A stretch of 64,000 nt of DNA from a virus. Below the pieces are notes generated by a model. The model worked only from the letters and a program-made list of their open reading frames with translations, was not told the origin of the DNA and did not search any database. This document shows positions 1 to 37,940 of this stretch, piece by piece (within the stretch, counting starts at the first letter, position 1; each line of letters opens with the position of its first letter). The stretch lies in the IMG/VR virus record IMGVR_UViG_3300020027_000006, positions 11,245-75,244 of that record, one strand, 5' to 3'. A program made the translations under genes and the position numbers.

Positions 1-265
1 CTCCTGTTACAATACCTTTTCTGCCGTAATATATACTTTCTTTTGAAACTCCTGAAATTTGAATATGAGTTCCAACAGGTGTAAATTTATACTCTAGACT
101 AATATTTTCAGATTCACCAAAGACGGTTCTAGGTTTAAAATTCCATTCAAATGCCGTTACGTGAACCATATCGTCTTCAATAAATTTAACATGACCACGT
201 ATCCACTTTATTTCACCTTCATGAAAAGTTTTTACTGATACTTCGTCTCCCACACCGTATTCCAT
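1..265 (-). CDS. Partial SH3/KOW-like small protein (MEYGVGDEVSVK...), runs off window
   Basis: Hand translation: ATG at 265 just after the TAA of 267..650; N-terminus matches the YxxGDxV pattern of neighbours. Confidence 0.7.
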   Translation of the reverse strand, partial: MEYGVGDEVSVKTFHEGEIKWIRGHVKFIEDDMVHVTAFEWNFKPRTVFGESENISLEYKFTPVGTHIQISGVSKESIYYGRKGIVTG

Positions 266-266
266 A

Positions 267-650
267 TTAACCTGCTATCCATATATAAACTGCAGAACTA
301 TCAAATACTTCAAACTCTGAGTCTATAACTGAAAACTGAGACCTGTCTAATAAAGTATAAATTGAATCTGGGTCAAGCCTTACTGTATAATCAGAGTAAT
401 CATAGCTTATACTCATTATCGTTCCTTCTCTGTTTTTCCACTTTTCACTGGTTACTTTAATTCGTTTACCAACACTTGAAGCTTTATGCGTTGTAATAAT
501 TTCATGTGATTTACGATACTCGAATTTTCTGAAATCGGGAAAACTCCCATGACTTATAATAATTCTATCTTCTTCAGAGTATATATCAATAATATATCCA
601 TAAATATCAGTATCTTTAATTTTTACTCTGTCTCCTATTTCAAACTCCAT
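267..650 (-). CDS. Tandem KOW/SH3-like protein with C-terminal VxxWI tag
   Basis: FEIGDRVKI and VGKRIKV beta-barrel starts; ends SAVYIWIAG. Confidence 0.7.
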   Translation of the reverse strand: MEFEIGDRVKIKDTDIYGYIIDIYSEEDRIIISHGSFPDFRKFEYRKSHEIITTHKASSVGKRIKVTSEKWKNREGTIMSISYDYSDYTVRLDPDSIYTLLDRSQFSVIDSEFEVFDSSAVYIWIAG

Positions 651-652
651 AA

Positions 653-1150
653 CTATCCTTTTAACCAGTCATGTACAGGAACTTCTTTTTTTATTTCAAT
701 CCACTCTGTTGCTTTATTTTCTGCATCCCATAAAGCCCATGACTTGAATTTTTTTAGCAGCATATTTTCAAAATAAATTTCAGCCCCGAATCTTACTCTA
801 AGACCATCGTACCTAGTAAACTCTTCATCATCAATTAAATAACCAGAACGAATAATATATCTATCACATTCTTTATCTGAAGAACTCCAAAAAATATTAC
901 GTACACCGTTTACTCTGTCATTTATCCAATTCTCACAATCTTCTAACGCATCTATCGGCTCAATCACGTTTTTTGAAGTATGCCCACCTAAAAAACTATG
1001 TCCAAAGGTATTTGACAGTGAGATATAGCCGTTAATCTTGTTTTTACACAATAAAAGTTCAGGTAAAGTTTTTATTGTTATCAAATATTCTTTGTAGATA
1101 ATTTTTTCTATGACTCTCGGCAAAACTAACATAGTCAACTCCCCAACCAA
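653..1150 (-). CDS. Hypothetical protein with C-terminal VxxWL tag
   Basis: ORF track; ends VPVHDWLKG. Confidence 0.65.
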   Translation of the reverse strand: MVGELTMLVLPRVIEKIIYKEYLITIKTLPELLLCKNKINGYISLSNTFGHSFLGGHTSKNVIEPIDALEDCENWINDRVNGVRNIFWSSSDKECDRYIIRSGYLIDDEEFTRYDGLRVRFGAEIYFENMLLKKFKSWALWDAENKATEWIEIKKEVPVHDWLKG

Positions 1151-1362
1151 TCTGATAGAGAAGTATCAGGAGGATGTATTTTCTCTAAAATAAAATAAGG
1201 TAAAGTTATAATAATTTCAGTGCTTGATTCGTATCTAGTTTTAATTTTAATGTGAAGGTTAGATTTTATTCCAACTACAGTACCTCTCTGTAATTCAGGA
1301 ACAAGCCAACCAGACTCCTCCCAAACTACTTCATCTCCTATATCAAATTCAAGTTTTATCAT
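1135..1362 (-). CDS. KOW/SH3-like small protein with LxxWL tag
   Basis: FDIGDEVVW; ends TSLSDWLGS. Confidence 0.7.
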   Translation of the reverse strand: MIKLEFDIGDEVVWEESGWLVPELQRGTVVGIKSNLHIKIKTRYESSTEIIITLPYFILEKIHPPDTSLSDWLGS

Positions 1363-1363
1363 G

Positions 1364-1615
1364 TTAATTTTCTAACCAGTCTGATAGAGAATTGTTAATG
1401 AATTCAGCTTTTTTAACCATACTTTTTAAAGTTAATTTTTTTAACCAGCCGTTAGGAAGAGTTTTAACCTCACCAACCTCTGCACCCTGTTCGGGCTCAA
1501 GTCTAACGTAGGAACAATACGTTCCTACAGTAAGTATGGTTCCTTTTCTCATTTCGACTAAGTTATTTACACAGATTTTATAAGTCACCTCATCGCCTTT
1601 TTCAAATTTTAACAT
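1364..1615 (-). CDS. KOW/SH3-like small protein with LxxWL tag, probably leaderless
   Basis: FEKGDEVTY; ends NSLSDWLEN; TTGACA-17-TAAAAT then 7 nt to ATG. Confidence 0.75.
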   Translation of the reverse strand: MLKFEKGDEVTYKICVNNLVEMRKGTILTVGTYCSYVRLEPEQGAEVGEVKTLPNGWLKKLTLKSMVKKAEFINNSLSDWLEN

Positions 1616-1659
1616 AAAATATATTTTATCATATGTATTCTATTTTGTCAATACAAAAA

Positions 1660-2103
1660 TTAAATCCTCAACCACTGTTGCACCGCATTAGAGTCCTTAT
1701 CAGGATTATCACTCGCTCTTTTAACTAATTTAAAATCCTCGAAAAATAAGTCGCCAGTCCTAACACGGTCGGAAGAAGCATCGAAGTAAGTAAATCCAGC
1801 TTTCATCCTTCCTTCAACCAAATAAACAGAAGTCACAATTGTTCTTGAGCCGTTAAGAAGTTCGATTATATCTCCTTTCTTTATAAACTCTAAAGGCTCC
1901 GATTCTAAAATAACAAGTATTCCTTCAGAATTTATATAAGTGCCATTATTAAGTTGAAAGACTTGTAATTTTTCAAAAGCCGTAAATTGAATTAAAATGA
2001 AGTCTTTAACTACATCTGATACTACTCCTTTTAAATACTCCCCCTCTGGAGAACAATAATGTATTGATTGACCAACTATAAACATATATCTAATTCTAAC
2101 CAA
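1660..2103 (-). CDS. Tandem SH3-like protein with VxxWL tag
   Basis: FIVGQSI and IKKGDII; ends NAVQQWLRI. Confidence 0.7.
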   Translation of the reverse strand: MVRIRYMFIVGQSIHYCSPEGEYLKGVVSDVVKDFILIQFTAFEKLQVFQLNNGTYINSEGILVILESEPLEFIKKGDIIELLNGSRTIVTSVYLVEGRMKAGFTYFDASSDRVRTGDLFFEDFKLVKRASDNPDKDSNAVQQWLRI

Positions 2104-2552
2104 CGATGAAGTCCGTCTTTTTCAGGTTGTATTACTATTAAATCAGCGTATCGAAATTCCTCGTTCCAGCCAACACCTTTTTCTGTATATGATACCCTCG
2201 CCCAACAATCGTTAGCAGGTAATTCTATCCAAGTCTTGAATACCTCTCCTATCTCACCGTTAGGAAGGAGCACTTTATCACATATTTTTATTCTGTCTAA
2301 TGAATCTGTATTTAAGAAGTTTAAAGTTTCGTTATAACAATTTTGGTATAATTCAGATTCCGGAGAATAATTAAAAGTTTCTACCATTTCTGGGAAATTC
2401 CATTTAGCCAAAATAAGAGGTGGAGAATCAAATATAGCATATACTGTTCCTTTTTTTATTATTTGTTTTCCATCTCTTCCTCTTCCGTCAGAAAGGCTCC
2501 AAACATTCATTCCTTTGACAATTAAATCTTTCATACCTTTGCGGACAACCAA
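2076..2552 (-). CDS. Tandem SH3-like protein with LxxWL tag
   Basis: IKICDKVLLPNGEIGEV; ends GLHRWLELDICL. Confidence 0.65.
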   Translation of the reverse strand: MVVRKGMKDLIVKGMNVWSLSDGRGRDGKQIIKKGTVYAIFDSPPLILAKWNFPEMVETFNYSPESELYQNCYNETLNFLNTDSLDRIKICDKVLLPNGEIGEVFKTWIELPANDCWARVSYTEKGVGWNEEFRYADLIVIQPEKDGLHRWLELDICL

Positions 2553-2803
2553 TTTGTTACACTCGTATTTTCAATAATCAGCTCAGTTGTAAAGCTTAAA
2601 TTATCCTCATGCATAAAAAAATCATTATAATCATTTACCTTATGTACAGCCTGTCCATTATCATCTACAGAACAAACACAGTAAATATATTCCGAACCCT
2701 CAAAGTTTTTTCTTACGGATACAATAACTCCTTTTACAAGAGGAAGTTCTGAACCGTACTTAACCGTTACACAGTCACCTGTTTTAAATTTTGGATAACT
2801 CAT
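2531..2803 (-). CDS. KOW/SH3-like protein with VxxWL tag
   Basis: PKFKTGDCVTV; ends TSVTNWLSAKV. Confidence 0.75.
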   Translation of the reverse strand: MSYPKFKTGDCVTVKYGSELPLVKGVIVSVRKNFEGSEYIYCVCSVDDNGQAVHKVNDYNDFFMHEDNLSFTTELIIENTSVTNWLSAKV

Positions 2804-3224
2804 TAGACATCCAATTAAGTACAGGATAAAGTGTTGTATCCTGCACCTCTAATTTATCCTCCCAAACCCAAACTCTTTCACCAGTTATAAGACGTACTAA
2901 ATATATATTTATAACTTTATCTTGACGCCAATCAAATTCAGACTTACATCTAACTATATGTCCTAATGTATTATTTGTTAGTATTATTACTTTTGTATTA
3001 TCTTCAAATTTTATCGAGTTTGCCCGTCTGTCACTGGCTTTTTCAATCAAAGTAAGCTGATTGACAGGCTTTAAGAATCTTTTTATGCGTCCTGCATCAT
3101 CAACACCTCTTATATAATACGCTTCGGGGTGCAATTTAGAAGGACAAAATATATACAGATTTCTATAAAAATACAGATAGTCACAGCGTACTTTGTCATT
3201 TTTCTGAAATTTATACTTACTCAT
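2784..3224 (-). CDS. Tandem SH3-like protein with VxxWM tag
   Basis: Start MSKYKFQKNDKV by ATGA overlap; ends YPVLNWMSNELSKI. Confidence 0.7.
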   Translation of the reverse strand: MSKYKFQKNDKVRCDYLYFYRNLYIFCPSKLHPEAYYIRGVDDAGRIKRFLKPVNQLTLIEKASDRRANSIKFEDNTKVIILTNNTLGHIVRCKSEFDWRQDKVINIYLVRLITGERVWVWEDKLEVQDTTLYPVLNWMSNELSKI

Positions 3225-3379
3225 ATATTTATAATCCATTCACAAACTGGTGAAATAACTGAAAAAATATCTTCTTCTAAGTCTGACTCAAAACACCAAA
3301 TTGTTTCTTCATTATCGAGTTTTAAAAGATATTCATGTATAACTTCGCCTTTAATTACATATTTTTGAAATTTATACAT
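3221..3379 (-). CDS. 52-aa protein missed by the ORF track, with PVCEWI tag
   Basis: Hand translation MYKFQKYVIKGEVIHEYLLKLDNEETIWCFESDLEEDIFSVISPVCEWIINI. Confidence 0.6.
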   Translation of the reverse strand: MYKFQKYVIKGEVIHEYLLKLDNEETIWCFESDLEEDIFSVISPVCEWIINI

Positions 3380-3382
3380 ATA

Positions 3383-3691
3383 TCATTCGTTCGCGGACAG
3401 CCAATTTTGTACAAAATTAACTTCTTCGACTATCCCATCATCCTGTATAAAACTTTTTGGGTGTATAGAAGTTAAAGTCCACCAAAACCTGTGAACAATT
3501 TTGAAAATATGTTTATAATTATCTTCTTCCAGTCTTAAATCATAATAACTTTCGTCGAAAGACAGAGAAACCGATTCTGTTTGTCCATAGTTTTCTACGA
3601 TACATCTTATTCCAATTTTGTGCGGAGAGCTTTTATACAGTACAAGTTCTCCTATCTCAAATTTAGGTTTCTTCATAAATTTTCTATCCAC
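3383..3691 (-). CDS. KOW/SH3-like protein with VxxWL tag
   Basis: KPKFEIGELV; ends NFVQNWLSANE. Confidence 0.75.
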   Translation of the reverse strand: MDRKFMKKPKFEIGELVLYKSSPHKIGIRCIVENYGQTESVSLSFDESYYDLRLEEDNYKHIFKIVHRFWWTLTSIHPKSFIQDDGIVEEVNFVQNWLSANE

Positions 3692-3927
3692 CTGTAAACA
3701 GACTCATCAAAAACATCTTCATTAGCTGTATAAGGTAGTACATTTGTCAGTCTATCCTCTAAATACACACCGCTCACATTACAACCTTCTAAAAATGAAT
3801 GTGTTGTATAGACAGGAAATTTATCCAAACCTATTCGAGATATTTTAACTATTATTCCAATAAACGGCTCTTTTTTAGGCTCTGTAATCATTACAGATTG
3901 TCCTATACTATATTTAGGTTTGTTCAT
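3673..3927 (-). CDS. KOW/SH3-like protein with VxxWI tag
   Basis: KPKYSIGQSV; ends ESVYRWIENL. Confidence 0.75.
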   Translation of the reverse strand: MNKPKYSIGQSVMITEPKKEPFIGIIVKISRIGLDKFPVYTTHSFLEGCNVSGVYLEDRLTNVLPYTANEDVFDESVYRWIENL

Positions 3928-3962
3928 GTTCCATTCATTTAGATACAGAAGATTCTGAATTA

Positions 3963-4214
3963 TCAGAATTTTTCATTGGTCAGCCAATTCTGTAAGCATT
4001 CGTAAACAGGTATAATAGACTCTAAATATTGATTTTTAAAATACAGTGACTCTTCAAACTCAGTTATAACTGTATATTGATATTTTTCTACTTGTCCTAT
4101 CAAATCGTGGACGATTGTAATCTCTGTTATTCTACCTATCTTATTGTTATGAGTGACACTAGGGGACACGATACGGACTATATCTCCTATTATGTACTCT
4201 GGTTTTCCTAACAT
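3963..4214 (-). CDS. KOW/SH3-like protein with LxxWL tag
   Basis: KPEYIIGDIVRI; ends ECLQNWLTNEKF. Confidence 0.75.
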   Translation of the reverse strand: MLGKPEYIIGDIVRIVSPSVTHNNKIGRITEITIVHDLIGQVEKYQYTVITEFEESLYFKNQYLESIIPVYECLQNWLTNEKF

Positions 4215-4358
4215 ATATCTAATTAAATTTACCCATTCGCGGACAGAGAATAAGTTTACGAATCAGTTCCTGAATAAGTAGTCATTAAACTTTCAGGAAG
4301 TATAACACCTAATTTATTACCTAGACGGATAATCTCTCTATTGTCTAAATCACGTTGC

Positions 4359-4865
4359 TCAGTTTTCACTTACTTTAGACGCTTCAGATGCCTTTACCAG
4401 CTCTACCAATTTCTTTTTATTAAACAATATACCAGATTCAAACATAGCCAAAACTGTGAGTCCATTATACATGGAGCCGCTCCATAGACCAGTATCTCCG
4501 TTTTTAATATTAATGAAGTTGCTAACAGATGAATCGTATTTTACAGTAAGTTTTGTGTCCTCTCTCGTGTTCAATAGATTTACTTTATTTGTTAAACTTT
4601 CAAAAATAACAGTCTCTGCGGACTTTACCGGCTCCTCATCCCAATGTGTCCAAGCCAATATATAAACCCAATCAATGCTTTCACCGACAGGAGTGTTACC
4701 AACTACAATAAACCTGAGTAAGGAACTGCCTCCCTCGCTGATTGAAATATATGGAAAATCTTTGTCGCTGTGTTCAGTAATAGTAAGTTTATTTGATTCA
4801 CATATATCATTTATTTCAGTTAGAATATATGTACGTTTTGTAAATAAATTTTTAAGTTCAGTCAT
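4359..4865 (-). CDS. Hypothetical protein
   Basis: 168-aa ORF with AGGAG RBS. Confidence 0.7.
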   Translation of the reverse strand: MTELKNLFTKRTYILTEINDICESNKLTITEHSDKDFPYISISEGGSSLLRFIVVGNTPVGESIDWVYILAWTHWDEEPVKSAETVIFESLTNKVNLLNTREDTKLTVKYDSSVSNFINIKNGDTGLWSGSMYNGLTVLAMFESGILFNKKKLVELVKASEASKVSEN

Positions 4866-4886
4866 AAATTTCTCCTAATCTTCAAT

Positions 4887-4994
4887 CTAATTAACTAACC
4901 AATCGACTAAATACGCTTTCACATTTTTCTGTTCATTATCTATAAGTTCGTTGGCAATAAGACAAGCAGATTCTATGTTAGAATAATATTTCAT
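4887..4994 (-). CDS. 35-aa peptide with YLVDWL tag
   Basis: Hand translation MKYYSNIESACLIANELIDNEQKNVKAYLVDWLVN; GGAG upstream. Confidence 0.5.
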   Translation of the reverse strand: MKYYSNIESACLIANELIDNEQKNVKAYLVDWLVN

Positions 4995-11070: not shown

Positions 11071-11609
11071 TTTTGTATTTATTCTGTGTTCTTATTTTGC
11101 CAAACAAAATAATCTTTTCCGTATATAGCCTTCATAGCTAACTCGAACATAAAATGTATGTCGTCATTATCATCGTGATAAGTACCATTTGATACTGCCT
11201 TAACTCGTTTTTCTGCTAACCGAATTAAAGGATTCCAGTCTATTTTTGGTTGGACTTTAGGAGATTCACACTTGGGTTCAAATATAAATTCCCCGTCAAT
11301 AAAATCTATTAATTGTATTTGACGGAAAGTTGTTATTGATTCTTTTGACATATTAAATCTCTAAAAAATTTGTTAGCTTGTCGCGGAGTTCATCTAATTC
11401 AGACCCGTCAGTTTTGAATCTTGACTCTATATTAAGAGTATCTGCTATATCTTGCTCCCCTAATACGGCCTGTGCTATCACCATAGTCATAGCAAGTTCT
11501 CTACGTGAAAACCCTTTAATACCTACTCCTTCCTCAGTTTTGCTTACCGTTATTTTTCTTAGCGTCTCTTTGTCCATATTTTTAATAGTAACACAATTAA
11601 AAATATTTG

Positions 11610-32428: not shown

Positions 32429-33211
32429 ATGTCTAGTACAAAAACAATGAAACGCTCAAAAGAGCAACGTGAGTCTGATATGAATATACTGTCTAAAATG
32501 TATATTCGAAACAAATCTCAGATGGAGATAGGCCGTACACTTGGAATATCTCAAGGTCAGGTCTCCAATGACCTCAAAAAACTACTCAAACGTTGGGAAG
32601 ATACTCGCCTTAACGATATAGACCAATATAAAGCAGAGCAATTACAACGAATCAATCACATAGAAGGTGAAATGTGGACAGCTTGGGAGCTTAGTAAGAC
32701 CAAAGGTAAGATAACTATATCTAAATCAAAATCAGGAGAAATGGTCAAAATGCTTGACCCGTCGACCGGAAGAGAATTTAAGATGGACGATGACCGTTAC
32801 TGGAAAGCAGGTGAAATCGAAGAGCTTCCAACTGGCGGGGGTGATATGCAATACATGAACGGTATTATGTGGTGTGTACAAGAACGTTCTAAAATTATGG
32901 GACTTAATGCTCCTAAGAAAATTGCTGCTACTGACCCAACCGGTACAATAGAAGCAGGTCAATCTGCAAAAGAGATACTTGGGGATATAATAGGCGGAAT
33001 TTTAAAACGAGCTGAAAAATCTGATAAAGAATTAATAGGAAGTAAACTTATGGAAATCGGAGATAACAATGAGATTGATGTTAGCTCTGGCTCAGTTCTG
33101 GCTCAAAAAATAAGGGATGAAAAAATACGAAGACTTCCGCCTGCAAAAAACGCAGGTACATCTAGTACCGAAGAAAATAATTACATTGATGCGGAGATAA
33201 TAGATGAGTAA
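32429..33211 (+). CDS. terS: Terminase small subunit (HTH)
   Basis: SQMEIGRTLGISQGQVSNDL HTH, RSKIMGLNAP; overlaps terL start. Confidence 0.75.
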   Translation: MSSTKTMKRSKEQRESDMNILSKMYIRNKSQMEIGRTLGISQGQVSNDLKKLLKRWEDTRLNDIDQYKAEQLQRINHIEGEMWTAWELSKTKGKITISKSKSGEMVKMLDPSTGREFKMDDDRYWKAGEIEELPTGGGDMQYMNGIMWCVQERSKIMGLNAPKKIAATDPTGTIEAGQSAKEILGDIIGGILKRAEKSDKELIGSKLMEIGDNNEIDVSSGSVLAQKIRDEKIRRLPPAKNAGTSSTEENNYIDAEIIDE

Positions 33212-36200
33212 AGAAAAATCAGCAGGCATTGATACATATAATGTAGAAGGCAAAGAATCTAAGGTTGCCAATTATACCCCTGAACCTGATGATAACAGAA
33301 GCATAATGGAAAAACTTGCTGACCTTAGTGTAGAAAATCCAGAAGCTTATAACGAAGCAATAGACGCATTAATAGCCGAAAAAGGTGAAGATTGGTTTAA
33401 GAATCTTCGTTATGATTGGTCTATAAACGGACGACCTAAACAGTTTCCTCCACAGCCTATGGAAAAGTGGAGAGCTTGGATTTGTTTGGCAGGTCGCGGA
33501 TGGGGAAAAGATTTAAGTCCTTTAACCCCAATACTTACAGTCAATCGTGGATGGATTACATTAGATAATATTTTAGTAGGAGATGTAGTATTTGATGAGC
33601 AAGGTTCTCATACTTCAGTTACAGCTGTTTATGATACGAATCCTGAAAAATGTTATAGACTTCATTTTAGTGACGGCACTTGTATAGAGGCTGGAGAGGG
33701 ACATGAATGGGTGACTTGGGACAGACAAGACCGCAAAGCATATAGAAGGTCTACATACGAGGACGCTAATTCTTTTCCAGAAGATTGGGTTAATTGGAAG
33801 GTAAAACGTGTAACTGCTCGTACTTGGCTTAATAAAGAAAAAGTAGAGTCTGCTTTAGAATTATCTAAGGCTGGTTTTAGTAATAGAAAAATAGCTCAAA
33901 TAACAGGATTAGGGAGGCTTGCTTTGGCTAAACACATTAAAGCTGGGCGATTTATAGAAAAACCAGTTCATGAGTTTGGAAAAAACAGAGTAAAAACTTC
34001 ACAGGAAATAGTAGAAACTCTTTATCATGAGTTAGCTGACGGAAGATTAGAAACTAATCACTGTATTCCTAATACTCGACCGTTAAAGACGGAAAATAAA
34101 ATTTTGCCTATTGACCCTTATTTATTTGGTATGTGGCTTGGTGACGGTTCTAAAGCTAGTGGGCAAATCGCTACTCATAAAGATGACCTGTCTAATTTAA
34201 CCTGTGAGTTGGATAAATTAGGATACAAGTATTCAGAACATAAAGACTATATATTTAATGTTTACGGTTTAGTTACTCAACTTAAAGAGCTTGGAGTACA
34301 TAAAAACAAACATATCCCTTCAGATTATTTGTCGTCTTCCATAGACCAGAGACTATCTCTTCTGCAAGGTCTTATGGACAGTGATGGTACTGCTGATAAA
34401 GATGGCTCAAGATGTGAATTTAGTCAGAGTAATGAAACACTTGCAAAACAAGTGTATACTTTAATCGTCTCGCTTGGTATGAGTGCTCATATGACCTCTC
34501 GAATTCCAATATTAAATGGGGAAGAGAAAAAAGAAAACTGGAGAATAAGATTTACTCCTAATCTTCCAGTTTTCAGACTTCCTAGAAAACTGGAAAGATT
34601 AGATTTTTCTAGGTCTCAAATATTAAAAAGATATTGCAGATACATAATTAAAGCAGAAGAAATTGTTCCAATTCCTATGCGTTGCATAACTGTAGATTCC
34701 CCTAATTCTTTATACTTGGCAGGTGACCAATTAATCCCTACTCATAATACCAAGACAGGGGCAGAAACTACAAATATTTGGGTCAACACACATAAAAAAG
34801 GAACTCCACCTATACGTATAGCTCTTATTGGTGCAACTACTAGTGACTGTAACGCGGTCATGGTTTCTGGAAATTCTGGTATACTCAGTATTTATCCAGA
34901 TAAAGAAAAACCTGACTGGATTTCAACCAACAGAAAAGTTATTTGGCGGTATCCTGACGGAGAAGTAAAGGCTATTGCGGAATGTTTTGCTTTAGACATC
35001 AATACTGAGATACCCACACCCAAAGGGTTTAAACTTATGGGTGATATTACAGTTGGTGAACAAGTATTTGATGAAAAAGGTCTCCCTTGCAATGTAACTG
35101 CTGTAACTGATACAGGACTAGACCATAAATGTTTTGAAATAACGTTTAAAAATGGTCAAAAAATAACGGCTGATGCTGCACATCTATGGAAAATTTCTAC
35201 AGCTTCGGATAGAGATAGTAGAGTTGATAAAAGCAGAATAGTGAATTCTCAGTGGATTGCGGACAACTTTAGTGTTCCGCATAAGGGAAGAAAAAACGAT
35301 TTAAATATTTGGGTCAAATTAACAGAACCTGTATTGTACGAAGAAAAAGAGCTGTCTATTGCACCATACGTTTTAGGTGTATGGCTTGGAGATGGTGCAA
35401 ATAATAATAGTTCTTTTGTATCAGAAACTTCTGAGATTCCAGATTTCATATCATCTTTTGGTTATTCTGTAACAAAAACTAAAGCACCAATGCGTTACAC
35501 AATTTGTGGTCTTATTACTCAGCTTAAAGAGTTTGGACTTTATAGAAATAAGCATATACCTTCGATTTACAAGCAAGGGTCTATTGAGCAAAGAAAAGAA
35601 CTATTGCGGGGATTGTTAGATACAGATGGTTTTGTATCAAAAAAAGGTGCGATTGTATTCTCTAATACAAATGAAGATTTAGTTGATGGGGTGTGTGAAA
35701 TAGTTTCCAGTCTTGGTGGATGGACAACAAAAAAATTACAAAACCCAAAAAAGAATCTTCCTTATAATCAAAAACCTAGATGGAAGGTAGTTATTAGAGG
35801 GCTGTATGACCTTTTCAAACTTCCACGAAAACTGGAGAGAGTAATAATTAGAAGAGTGTCCACTGATTTGCCAGTAGTTTCACTTAAAGAAGTAGAACCA
35901 ACACCAGTTAGATGTATAACAGTAGACTCATCAGAACATCTATTTCTTGCTACTAGAAGCTATATTGTGACCTCAAACAGTGCAGAGGAGCCTGAGCGTC
36001 TTCGAGGCCCACAATTTAATTATGCGTGGTGTTTGATTGGAGAAACTCCAGTGTTAATGGAGAATTTTACAACCAAACCTTTGAAAGATATTAAAGAGGG
36101 AGAATATGTACGAACGAGAGACGGGGCTAAGAAAGTATTAGCTTCTTATCTTACCAAAGAAAATGCTGACTTGTATGAGTTACTTCTTATGGACGGAAGA

Positions 36201-37940
36201 GTTATTATAGGTACAGGTGAGCATCCTGTATATTTATCAGATTCAGGATTTACTCAACTTCAAAATATTAAAGAGGGAGATTTTGTATTATGTGCAAGTC
36301 CTGTATCAAATTCGACGGAGGAGTTTATCATCTTAGAGGAAACTCTCCTTATTATCAAACAAGTATTAGACTTCATAGAGAGGTATGGAGATACCACAAC
36401 GGAAGAATCCCAGAAGGACATCATATCCACCATAAAAACGAGGATAGAACAGATAATTCAGTTGAAAATTTGGAGTGCCTCACAAAAGAAGAGCATTCAA
36501 GAATTCACGGAACTAAGCGATTTGCGGAGTTTAGAGAGCTGGCTGTTGCAAATTCAATTAAATCTAGGGAGCACAATAGAAAAGAACTACTTAAAAGAAT
36601 TTTATTATGTAAATTATGCGGAAAAGAGTTTAGCAGCGGGTCAAAACATCCAAGACAACTATGCTCTCAAAAATGCATGGATGAACTTAGAAACACATCA
36701 TACACAGGAGAATCCAGATTATGTGCTTTTTGCGGAGAAGAGTACACTACATCAAAAAATGCTCAAAAATATTGTTCCAAACTATGCAATAACAGAGTAC
36801 ATGCGGACAGAGCCAGTAAACTGGTTGCTAAAACAATTAAATGTGTTATTTGTAAAATTGAATTCAATTCAAAACGATTCAATGCAAGATTTTGTAGCAC
36901 AAAATGCTCTAAATCTATACGATATGAAAGTGGTAGGCGTAAAAAAATTAGCGAAGAAATCAGACGTTTATGATTTAACTATTGAGGACAGTCATGAGTT
37001 TTTTGCAAACGGTGTTCTTGTGCATAATTGTGATGAATTAGCTGCTTGGCGTTATCAGGCAGCATGGGATATGTTAATGTTTGGTCTTCGTTTAGGAGAC
37101 AACCCACAGGTCATAGTGACTACTACTCCTAGACCTTTTCCTATTTTGCTCGATGTACTTAAATTAAAGACCAGCTGGACAACAATAGGTACAACTTATG
37201 AGAATCGTTCTAACTTAGCCCCTGCTTTTTTTAGTGACATCATAAACAAATATGAGGATTCAGCACTTGGTCGTCAAGAATTAATGGCCGAAATAATTGA
37301 AGAAGTTCCAAACGCTATGTGGAATGAGAAAAACATTGAGGCTAACAGACGTGATTATAGTGATATAATTAATCTTCCAGAAATGTTAAGTATGGTTATA
37401 GCTATTGACCCCGCAACTACTAGTAGAAGTGGTTCTGCAGAAACCGGTATGTGTGTAGCGGGTTATGGAGAAGATGACCATTTCTATATATATCATTTAG
37501 ACGCAGTATCTATGCAGCCTGATAAATGGGCAACTCGTGCTCTCAATTTATTTGAGGACTATAACTGTGATAAATTAATAGCAGAGGTTAATAATGGAGG
37601 AGATTTAGTAGAAACAGTTATAAAATCTATTAATCCTATGCAAAAAGTATACCCTGTTTATGCATCTCGCGGTAAAATTACTCGTGCTGAACCTATTGCA
37701 GCTCTTTATGAGCAAAATCGTGTTCATCATATAGGAAGATTTTTAGAGGGTGAACGTCAAATGACTACATTTAATCCGCTAGAGAACCCTCACGGTCTTA
37801 AAGATATGGTAGACGCTTTGGTTTGGGCAGTCACTTGGCTGGTTAATACTACTCAAGGTAAAAATACTTTTAAACCGGCAGTTGGGGGTTCTCGCACAAA
37901 ATTATCAAATTATAGAAAAATATTTAATACAGATTTTTAA
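33204..37940 (+). CDS. terL: Terminase large subunit with three inteins
   Basis: Spliced exteins: AGRGWGK|TKTG (Walker A), F|SAEEPERLRGPQ, W|CDELAAW (Walker B), VTTTPRP, AIDPA, AEVNNGG, DMVDA. Confidence 0.95.
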   Translation: MSKEKSAGIDTYNVEGKESKVANYTPEPDDNRSIMEKLADLSVENPEAYNEAIDALIAEKGEDWFKNLRYDWSINGRPKQFPPQPMEKWRAWICLAGRGWGKDLSPLTPILTVNRGWITLDNILVGDVVFDEQGSHTSVTAVYDTNPEKCYRLHFSDGTCIEAGEGHEWVTWDRQDRKAYRRSTYEDANSFPEDWVNWKVKRVTARTWLNKEKVESALELSKAGFSNRKIAQITGLGRLALAKHIKAGRFIEKPVHEFGKNRVKTSQEIVETLYHELADGRLETNHCIPNTRPLKTENKILPIDPYLFGMWLGDGSKASGQIATHKDDLSNLTCELDKLGYKYSEHKDYIFNVYGLVTQLKELGVHKNKHIPSDYLSSSIDQRLSLLQGLMDSDGTADKDGSRCEFSQSNETLAKQVYTLIVSLGMSAHMTSRIPILNGEEKKENWRIRFTPNLPVFRLPRKLERLDFSRSQILKRYCRYIIKAEEIVPIPMRCITVDSPNSLYLAGDQLIPTHNTKTGAETTNIWVNTHKKGTPPIRIALIGATTSDCNAVMVSGNSGILSIYPDKEKPDWISTNRKVIWRYPDGEVKAIAECFALDINTEIPTPKGFKLMGDITVGEQVFDEKGLPCNVTAVTDTGLDHKCFEITFKNGQKITADAAHLWKISTASDRDSRVDKSRIVNSQWIADNFSVPHKGRKNDLNIWVKLTEPVLYEEKELSIAPYVLGVWLGDGANNNSSFVSETSEIPDFISSFGYSVTKTKAPMRYTICGLITQLKEFGLYRNKHIPSIYKQGSIEQRKELLRGLLDTDGFVSKKGAIVFSNTNEDLVDGVCEIVSSLGGWTTKKLQNPKKNLPYNQKPRWKVVIRGLYDLFKLPRKLERVIIRRVSTDLPVVSLKEVEPTPVRCITVDSSEHLFLATRSYIVTSNSAEEPERLRGPQFNYAWCLIGETPVLMENFTTKPLKDIKEGEYVRTRDGAKKVLASYLTKENADLYELLLMDGRVIIGTGEHPVYLSDSGFTQLQNIKEGDFVLCASPVSNSTEEFIILEETLLIIKQVLDFIERYGDTTTEESQKDIISTIKTRIEQIIQLKIWSASQKKSIQEFTELSDLRSLESWLLQIQLNLGSTIEKNYLKEFYYVNYAEKSLAAGQNIQDNYALKNAWMNLETHHTQENPDYVLFAEKSTLHQKMLKNIVPNYAITEYMRTEPVNWLLKQLNVLFVKLNSIQNDSMQDFVAQNALNLYDMKVVGVKKLAKKSDVYDLTIEDSHEFFANGVLVHNCDELAAWRYQAAWDMLMFGLRLGDNPQVIVTTTPRPFPILLDVLKLKTSWTTIGTTYENRSNLAPAFFSDIINKYEDSALGRQELMAEIIEEVPNAMWNEKNIEANRRDYSDIINLPEMLSMVIAIDPATTSRSGSAETGMCVAGYGEDDHFYIYHLDAVSMQPDKWATRALNLFEDYNCDKLIAEVNNGGDLVETVIKSINPMQKVYPVYASRGKITRAEPIAALYEQNRVHHIGRFLEGERQMTTFNPLENPHGLKDMVDALVWAVTWLVNTTQGKNTFKPAVGGSRTKLSNYRKIFNTDF
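33510..34748 (+). mobile_element. Intein 1 (class-3-like, Asp at position 1) with LAGLIDADG and HTH insert
   Basis: GK|DLSPLTPILT...GHEW...GMWLGDG...GLMDSDG...MRCITVD...IPTHN|T. Confidence 0.85.
34989..35978 (+). mobile_element. Intein 2 (class-3-like, Ala start, SN end) with LAGLIDADG
   Basis: F|ALDINTEIPT...AAHLW...GVWLGDG...GLLDTDG...VRCITVD...IVTSN|S. Confidence 0.85.
36030..37028 (+). mobile_element. Intein 3 (class 1) with nested out-of-frame HNH gene
   Basis: W|CLIGETPV...GTGEHPV...VYDLTIEDSHEFFANGVLVHN|C. Confidence 0.9.
36290..36973 (+). CDS. HNH endonuclease with Zn-finger repeats, alternative frame inside intein 3
   Basis: RLHREVW...IPEGHHIHHKNEDRTDNSVENL plus three CxxC...CSxxC units. 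Confidence 0.85.
   Translation: MCKSCIKFDGGVYHLRGNSPYYQTSIRLHREVWRYHNGRIPEGHHIHHKNEDRTDNSVENLECLTKEEHSRIHGTKRFAEFRELAVANSIKSREHNRKELLKRILLCKLCGKEFSSGSKHPRQLCSQKCMDELRNTSYTGESRLCAFCGEEYTTSKNAQKYCSKLCNNRVHADRASKLVAKTIKCVICKIEFNSKRFNARFCSTKCSKSIRYESGRRKKISEEIRRL

Follow-up and report, generated by a model that had tools for sequence, protein, structure and literature searches.

An intein in the large terminase gene of an uncultured virus encloses an HNH homing-endonuclease-type gene in a different reading frame

Endonuclease genes that lie out of frame within an intein or a host gene have been described in several phage groups and in cyanobacteria. In brucellaphages, a putative intein-encoded HNH gene was found out of frame in terL, the gene for the large terminase (Tevdoradze et al. 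2015, PMC4422536). Non-canonical inteins of actinobacteriophages, with terL among their hosts, have the endonuclease in a separate frame or on the other strand, and they are proposed to have arisen when a free-standing endonuclease gene invaded an intein (Gosselin, Arsenault and Gogarten, bioRxiv 10.1101/2025.01.02.630785). An out-of-frame endonuclease is also described for a cyanobacterial dnaX intein (2026 preprint). Two related arrangements are the ShiLan-type "hidden HNH", in which out-of-frame HNH genes lie in phage DNA methylase genes and no inteins are involved (Arsenault et al. 2025, PMC11855218), and fractured genes, in which split inteins have a free-standing endonuclease gene between their halves (Dassa et al. 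2009, PMC2677866). Here we describe a locus in IMG/VR record IMGVR_UViG_3300020027_000006, an uncultured viral contig of 75 kb (about 56% complete according to CheckV, 35.6% guanine plus cytosine, GC). The window analysed is a stretch of 64,000 nucleotides (nt), positions 11,245 to 75,244 of that record, in which the third intein of the terL product contains a complete HNH homing-endonuclease-type open reading frame (ORF) in another frame.

The terL precursor is encoded on the plus strand, as are all features described below, by a single ORF of 1578 amino acids (aa) at 33204..37940. The ORF list, Pfam matches (Terminase_6N, Terminase_6C, Intein_splicing and LAGLIDADG_3) and alignment to an intein-less TerL of 448 aa show that the Terminase_6N and Terminase_6C parts of the product are interrupted by three inteins. 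Intein 3 has 333 residues (36030..37028) and is of the class-1 type: Cys1 is the TGT at 36030, a His-Asn pair at 37023..37028 ends the intein, and Cys+1 follows at 37029, which places the C-terminal junction VLVHN/C (slashes mark the junction) at 37014..37031. The intein-less TerL of Desulfofustis phage LS06-2018-MD02 aligns without a break across this junction (...GPQFNYAW/CDELAAW in the window, ...GPQHDAAW/LDELCKW in the homolog), and because of this unbroken alignment the boundaries of intein 3 are exact. The initial annotation had given the same coordinates and had called the splice ends canonical. The insertion (W/CDE) sits within Walker B, where the +1 Cys takes the place of the hydrophobic residue just before the Asp-Glu pair. 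The C-extein opens with Cys-Asp-Glu (37029..37037), the +1 nucleophile followed by what we take to be the Walker B acidic pair, an assignment made from the hhhhDE pattern of terminase ATPases.

Within intein 3, two splicing halves are separated by a long spacer. The N-terminal splicing (Hint) half comprises residues 1-93 (36030..36308) and includes block B, with the motif TGEH, while the C-terminal half comprises residues 290-333 (36897..37028) and holds blocks F and G (VYDLT ... ANGVLVHN). In an alignment of 13 inteins (A3) the C-terminal half is conserved, and Cys1, His65 and Asn333 are invariant. The AlphaFold2 model of the intein frame has a predicted local distance difference test score (pLDDT) of about 96 for residues 1-93 and 290-333 (84-96 along the C-terminal half) and below 50 for residues 94-282. 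The confident parts match the solved mini-inteins 6rix, 6qaz and 4o1r (Foldseek probability 1.0; template modelling score 0.82 on the target for 4o1r), and the Pfam Intein_splicing match spans residues 34-333 (E 4e-16). The spacer itself, residues 94-289 (36309..36896), is open, unconserved and without a confident fold. No Pfam domain was found in this intein-frame middle, in agreement with the earlier observation that it holds no recognisable nuclease.

The nuclease is instead encoded in the +2 frame relative to terL, such that a terL codon begins at the second position of an HNH codon. The HNH gene (36290..36973) encodes 227 aa, has its own ATG and TGA, and matches Pfam HNH_3 (E 2e-18, 66.2 bits, with a gathering cut-off of 24.8). 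Both the HNH frame and the intein frame are open over all 684 nt. The ORF starts 87 codons past Cys1 of the intein, which is where intein endonuclease domains are normally located, and ends 18 codons short of the intein's last residue. Its TGA (36971..36973) is formed by the last base of the Tyr codon and the first two bases of the Asp codon in the block F motif VYDL, and its 3' end, about 25 codons, overlaps the confidently folded C-terminal splicing half, so that this segment is coding in both frames.

The HNH frame is modelled by AlphaFold2 with a mean pLDDT of 89.5 and reads as a nuclease domain followed by three zinc ribbons. Residues 7-78 (36308..36523) form the predicted HNH (beta-beta-alpha-metal) domain. 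Its best structural match by VIA-align is I-HmuI (1u3e_M; Z 7.9, root-mean-square deviation 2.2 A, 71 residues), the intron-encoded HNH homing endonuclease of phage SPO1; the next match had a Z of 4.6, and a profile search against the PDB returned 1u3e at E 0.046. Sequence identity to I-HmuI is 17% over the aligned residues. I-HmuI is the product of a group I intron and uses NUMOD and helix-turn-helix elements for DNA binding, whereas the window protein is encoded within an intein and has three zinc ribbons. A Foldseek search of the whole HNH model, which consists of several small domains in a row, gave no significant match in the PDB. The three CxxC...CxxxC modules lie at about residues 105-210 (36602..36919) and are likely the DNA-binding part; their fold matches are weak (for example YacG at Z 4.5 by VIA-align). 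In the 17-sequence family alignment (A1), H47, H48, N56, N60, H69 and H73 are invariant, as are C107/C110/C125/C129, C145/C148/C162/C166 and C206, with C185/C188/C202 near-invariant. All of the family-invariant His and Asn residues and all twelve zinc-binding Cys positions are retained in the window protein. A complete HNH plus zinc-finger ORF, as the initial annotation proposed, is present.

Of the described systems, the brucellaphages (Tb, Pr and relatives; Perisivirus) have a layout much like this one: an HNH of about 228 aa lies wholly in the terL intein, on the same strand and in another frame, terL remains open, and the C-terminal splicing block is similar. They differ in having the zinc ribbons first and the HNH domain last, the reverse of the window protein, and in an offset of +1 rather than the +2 from terL seen in the window. 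The Brucella phage HNH was considered as a homolog of the window HNH and was rejected (BLASTP E 0.8). In the actinobacteriophage inteins, too, the splicing blocks enclose a free-standing-type nuclease gene that is antisense or in another frame. Their out-of-frame same-strand case is endonuclease VII-like and their HNH inteins are in frame, whereas the window, from an uncultured phage of low GC, has an HNH_3 domain plus three zinc ribbons. ShiLan-type insertions share the out-of-frame HNH inside a host gene whose frame stays open, but they have no splicing domain and the insert stays in the host protein, whereas the window has a complete Hint fold that would remove it. An insertion of the ShiLan type was ruled out for the window, as complete splicing halves flank the HNH ORF. 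A fractured gene was likewise ruled out, as terL is one continuous ORF of 1578 codons. An out-of-frame nuclease in an intein is a rare and little-studied layout that is already in print (2015, 2025-26), and the window adds a well-documented example of it and no new principle. The publications on such layouts reviewed here contain no nuclease with HNH_3 and zinc ribbons in this role. What is new here is a test of stop-codon avoidance, a contrast of conservation and fold between the two frames, and a link to split and free-standing relatives.

Chance is excluded as the source of the double open frame. Although 168 of the 1578 codons in the +2 frame of terL are stops, one run of 233 codons is open, and this is the HNH ORF; the next longest alternate-frame open run in the long ORFs of the window has 86 codons. 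We shuffled synonymous codons among positions of the HNH gene with its protein and codon usage held fixed. On average, a shuffled gene put 5.6 stops into the terL frame, and not one of the 20000 trials matched the observed number, zero. In the window gene, the base after an NTA codon is C or T in every case, and the base after an NTG codon is never A. No such avoidance was evident in the HNH gene of Vibrio phage 1.245.O, where the terL intein is split (14 stops observed, 12.6 expected), or in the free-standing HNH gene of Salmonella phage Shemara (10 observed, 9.7 expected). Across 79 viral loci, the 25 nested ORFs had 2 stops in the other frame where 51 were expected, and the 54 free-standing ORFs had 558 where 533 were expected. 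These tests, in the window and across the family, indicate that the terL frame is held open by selection on the choice and placement of HNH codons. The layout is kept by selection, and the initial annotation was right that both frames stay open and that the intein frame has been kept so.

The stop counts bear also on whether the arrangement could be an artefact, in which two compensating assembly or sequencing indels displaced an ordinary in-frame HNH domain. The window does come from a metagenome-assembled viral contig, and assembly frameshifts had been named at the outset as what would refute the dual-frame interpretation. Such errors would leave stops at about 10% of codons in the terL frame, but none is observed in 228 codons and the codons are placed so as to avoid them. 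The open intein frame would go unexplained, and the same layout and offset occur in 25 other independent contigs and in the genome of a cultured phage. We regard the artefact as hardly credible.

The two frames also differ in conservation. When aligned to relatives, the HNH frame gives z values of 20 to 57, and the intein frame of the same DNA gives -0.6 to 5.7. Judged by alignment and by predicted structure, it is the HNH frame that carries a conserved protein, and the intein frame in this region appears to be an unconserved spacer with no confident fold, a shadow reading of the HNH gene. Relatives of the HNH protein are numerous, with 8378 in the protein library at E up to 1e-3 and 901 at E up to 1e-10, the closest being 46% identical. 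A word-based protein search gave a single match at 42% identity. In a distant-mode blastn search of the intein 3 DNA against 50,697 phage records no match was found, and viral contigs searched with either the HNH protein alone or the TerL C-extein yielded no confirmed relative.

Searching with a five-sequence family alignment (A2) retrieved 80 viral-contig loci. In 26 of these, the HNH ORF lies wholly within a long ORF of another frame, 25 of them at the offset of the window. The sole nested ORF with the other offset (+2, as counted from the HNH frame) is in locus L043, where the enclosing ORF (1587..3443) has 619 codons and no Pfam match. Ten enclosing ORFs were tested, and nine were terL genes with an Intein_splicing match across the HNH region. 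The enclosing terL genes belong to both the Terminase_6 and the Terminase_3 families and have several insertion sites; in one (L015), the site W/CDELAAW is identical to that of the window. Thirteen relatives have the same anatomy, with the HNH ORF ending 11-23 codons before the end of the intein. Elements of this type occupy several sites in terL and are present in both terL families, a distribution that fits mobility of the type rather than of the window copy in particular. In locus L009, the HNH ORF is shortened to 94 aa (2965..3249) within a terL frame that is still open, and it is likely a decaying copy of a nested nuclease. Three library relatives (P0004, P0008 and P0036) have about 87 extra N-terminal residues rich in Arg, Gly and Pro. 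This stretch is probably an out-of-frame reading of the N-terminal splicing half of an intein in high-GC genomes, which suggests that these genomes may have the same nested layout.

A cultured phage has the layout as well. A tblastn search of cultured phages with the HNH ORF gave matches inside or beside terL genes. The complete genome of the cultured Clostridium phage phiCDHM19 (NC_028996; L001) has the same arrangement at a different terL site: an HNH ORF of 221 aa (2056..2721) lies at the same offset in an open C-terminal intein of a terL of 799 aa (443..2842). In phi CD119, a tblastn match falls at a similar position, under "hypothetical protein". The phiCDHM19 record annotates terL and omits the nested HNH ORF, as expected if standard annotation misses such elements. 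This proposal of the initial annotation does not hold throughout, since in the GenBank record of Brucella phage Tb (NC_019446) both genes are annotated, terL at 2347..4893 as "intein present" and HNH at 3170..3856.

A further about nine to ten of the enclosing ORFs are DNA-methylase-like by motif and have no recognisable intein, and nine of these have the same offset. They include L030, L033, L036, L041 and L042 (and L031, L050, L071 and L080), with HNH_3 ORFs of about 130-230 aa at the same +1 offset and host motifs such as SRFFYCAK and DPF.GSGST; intein ends were not recognisable. These methylase-like loci resemble the ShiLan-type hidden HNH. Their existence is relevant to the idea that the nested HNH is a domesticated helper that aids the terminase in packaging or end cutting, like the HNH proteins beside terminase in cos phages, and is not selfish. 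Relatives of the window HNH are often found beside or inside terL, and the same role was suggested for the nested HNH of brucellaphages (PMC4422536). We consider it improbable here, because other HNH_3 branches are nested in DNA methylase genes with no terminase and many are free-standing, the homing endonuclease I-HmuI is the nearest match of the nuclease domain, and intein-less TerL homologs exist that have no nested HNH.

A split form of the element is found in Vibrio phage 1.245.O (NC_055736; L002), where terL (197..3925) is annotated as two separate pieces. The N-terminal part, which includes the N-terminal intein half, ends at 3073, a free HNH ORF occupies 2959..3669, and a piece of 109 aa (3596..3925), in the same frame as the N-terminal part, comprises the C-terminal intein half and a short C-extein. 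As in the window, a nuclease of the same HNH family lies between the intein halves in the same relative frame. Along the HNH gene the Vibrio intein frame is interrupted by 14 stops, and terL consists of two ORFs, whereas the intein frame of the window is continuous. Four sibling Vibrio phage records look like this one. None of the 54 loci with a non-nested HNH ORF showed split-intein ends nearby in a crude motif search.

The 17 intein-nested HNH sequences all group in a tree of weak resolution, and the Vibrio copy (split intein) and the Shemara copy (free-standing) fall within that group. The methylase-nested copies arise in several other clades of the same tree. The existence of free-standing and split relatives is consistent with the earlier suggestion that a mini-intein was invaded by a free HNH gene, although the order of events is only inferred. 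One tentative possibility is that nucleases with HNH_3 and triple zinc ribbons are a lineage of homing genes adapted to overprinting, in which the nuclease gene itself would pass on a stop-free +1 frame as an inherited trait. The grouping of the 17 copies, all with the same offset and with the split Vibrio and free Shemara genes among them, is the reason that this idea fits. If it is true, the cassette could pass from one intein to another and from one terL site (Walker B, linker or nuclease domain) to another, and would occasionally decay into split-intein or free-standing forms. The alternative is a set of separate invasions, each then cleared of stops.

How the HNH protein might be made can be considered from the sequence around its start. 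A Shine-Dalgarno-like purine-rich motif, GAGGGAG (36273..36279), lies 10 nt before the HNH ATG and also encodes part of the intein sequence KEGD. Shine-Dalgarno-like motifs precede 12 of 17 intein-nested HNH starts, compared with 24% of random host-ORF positions (P 7e-5), and Met1 of the HNH protein is invariant in 17 of 17 aligned sequences (A1). This conserved start and the motifs before it argue against ribosomal frameshifting from the terL frame, which would yield the nuclease fused to the N-terminal portion of the precursor. Both frames are on one mRNA and the HNH frame stays open over the 6 codons that precede its ATG, as such a fusion would need, but the stop at 36269..36271 in the HNH frame leaves only 18 nt for a shift, and no X XXY YYZ heptamer was seen in those 18 nt. 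We judge frameshifting to be very improbable. No intron family, nor any other RNA family, was detected when 35800..37300 was compared with Rfam (E up to 1), and an intron is unnecessary because the intein frame is open.

Considering these results together, we think it probable that intein 3 is a contiguous class-1 mini-intein in Walker B that has been overprinted by an I-HmuI-like HNH gene, and that this gene is separately translated, acts in homing and is under selection together with the intein frame. We infer the following course of events. Ribosomes translating terL would read through in the intein frame and produce a spacer of about 190 residues with no predicted stable fold. The two Hint halves, if competent to splice, would associate and excise the entire insert, which would restore Walker B. 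Internal initiation by other ribosomes, at ATG 36290 on the same late mRNA, would produce a free HNH protein. The specificity of this protein would most likely direct it to cut intein-less terL alleles near Walker B during co-infections, and repair of the cut allele would copy the intein and the nuclease together. Such homing, and with it any ongoing mobility, is suggested by the family and the layout. Selection would preserve the HNH protein and, through the choice and placement of HNH codons, would also hold the terL frame free of stops.

Several observations weigh against this interpretation. With no relative above 46% protein identity found, neither presence/absence polymorphism nor a per-frame ratio of nonsynonymous to synonymous substitution rates is available for the window element. 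The Shine-Dalgarno-like motif of the window HNH is modest, and many genes of this phage have none. In a promoter and terminator scan the intein contained no plus-strand promoter-like site, with counts equal to those in shuffled sequence, and for this reason the late terL mRNA is the likely template for the HNH protein. The codon-usage likelihood ratio is alike in the two overlapping frames, at 0.07 each, compared with 0.5-0.65 for ordinary coding sequence.

The most serious rival is a recently inactivated relic, as close relatives that would allow a test of current selection or mobility are lacking. In this case, the HNH would formerly have been the homing nuclease of the intein and would now be unexpressed or inactive, the intein fixed and vertically inherited, and the ORF not yet broken. 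The weak ribosome-binding signal of the window copy fits a relic, neither close relatives nor empty-site alleles were found that show ongoing movement, and degraded copies such as that of L009 do exist in the family. We nevertheless find a relic unlikely. The window copy has 227 codons with no stop in a genome of 35.6% GC whose alternate frames carry about 10% stops, it has kept every catalytic and zinc-binding residue that is invariant in the family, and its fold is predicted with confidence.

Two more inteins are located upstream of intein 3 in terL (33204..36029), at about residues 103-537 and 582-925 of the product as judged from gaps relative to the intein-less TerL of 448 aa. The first is inserted in Walker A (GRGWGK/DLSP ... 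THN/T), and the Pfam LAGLIDADG_3 and Hom_end matches fall here. The second lies before the RLRGPQ motif (ECF/ALDI ... TSN/S). Both start without Cys or Ser.

The overprinted intein presents two overlapping genes under different selection, with one frame selected for its protein and the other, between the splicing halves, only to stay open. This supports the view that in the acquisition of intein endonucleases splicing came first and the nuclease later. Together with its split Vibrio and free-standing relatives, it offers a series of related forms for comparison. Since gene callers usually report terL alone, nucleases of this kind are under-counted in phage genomes.

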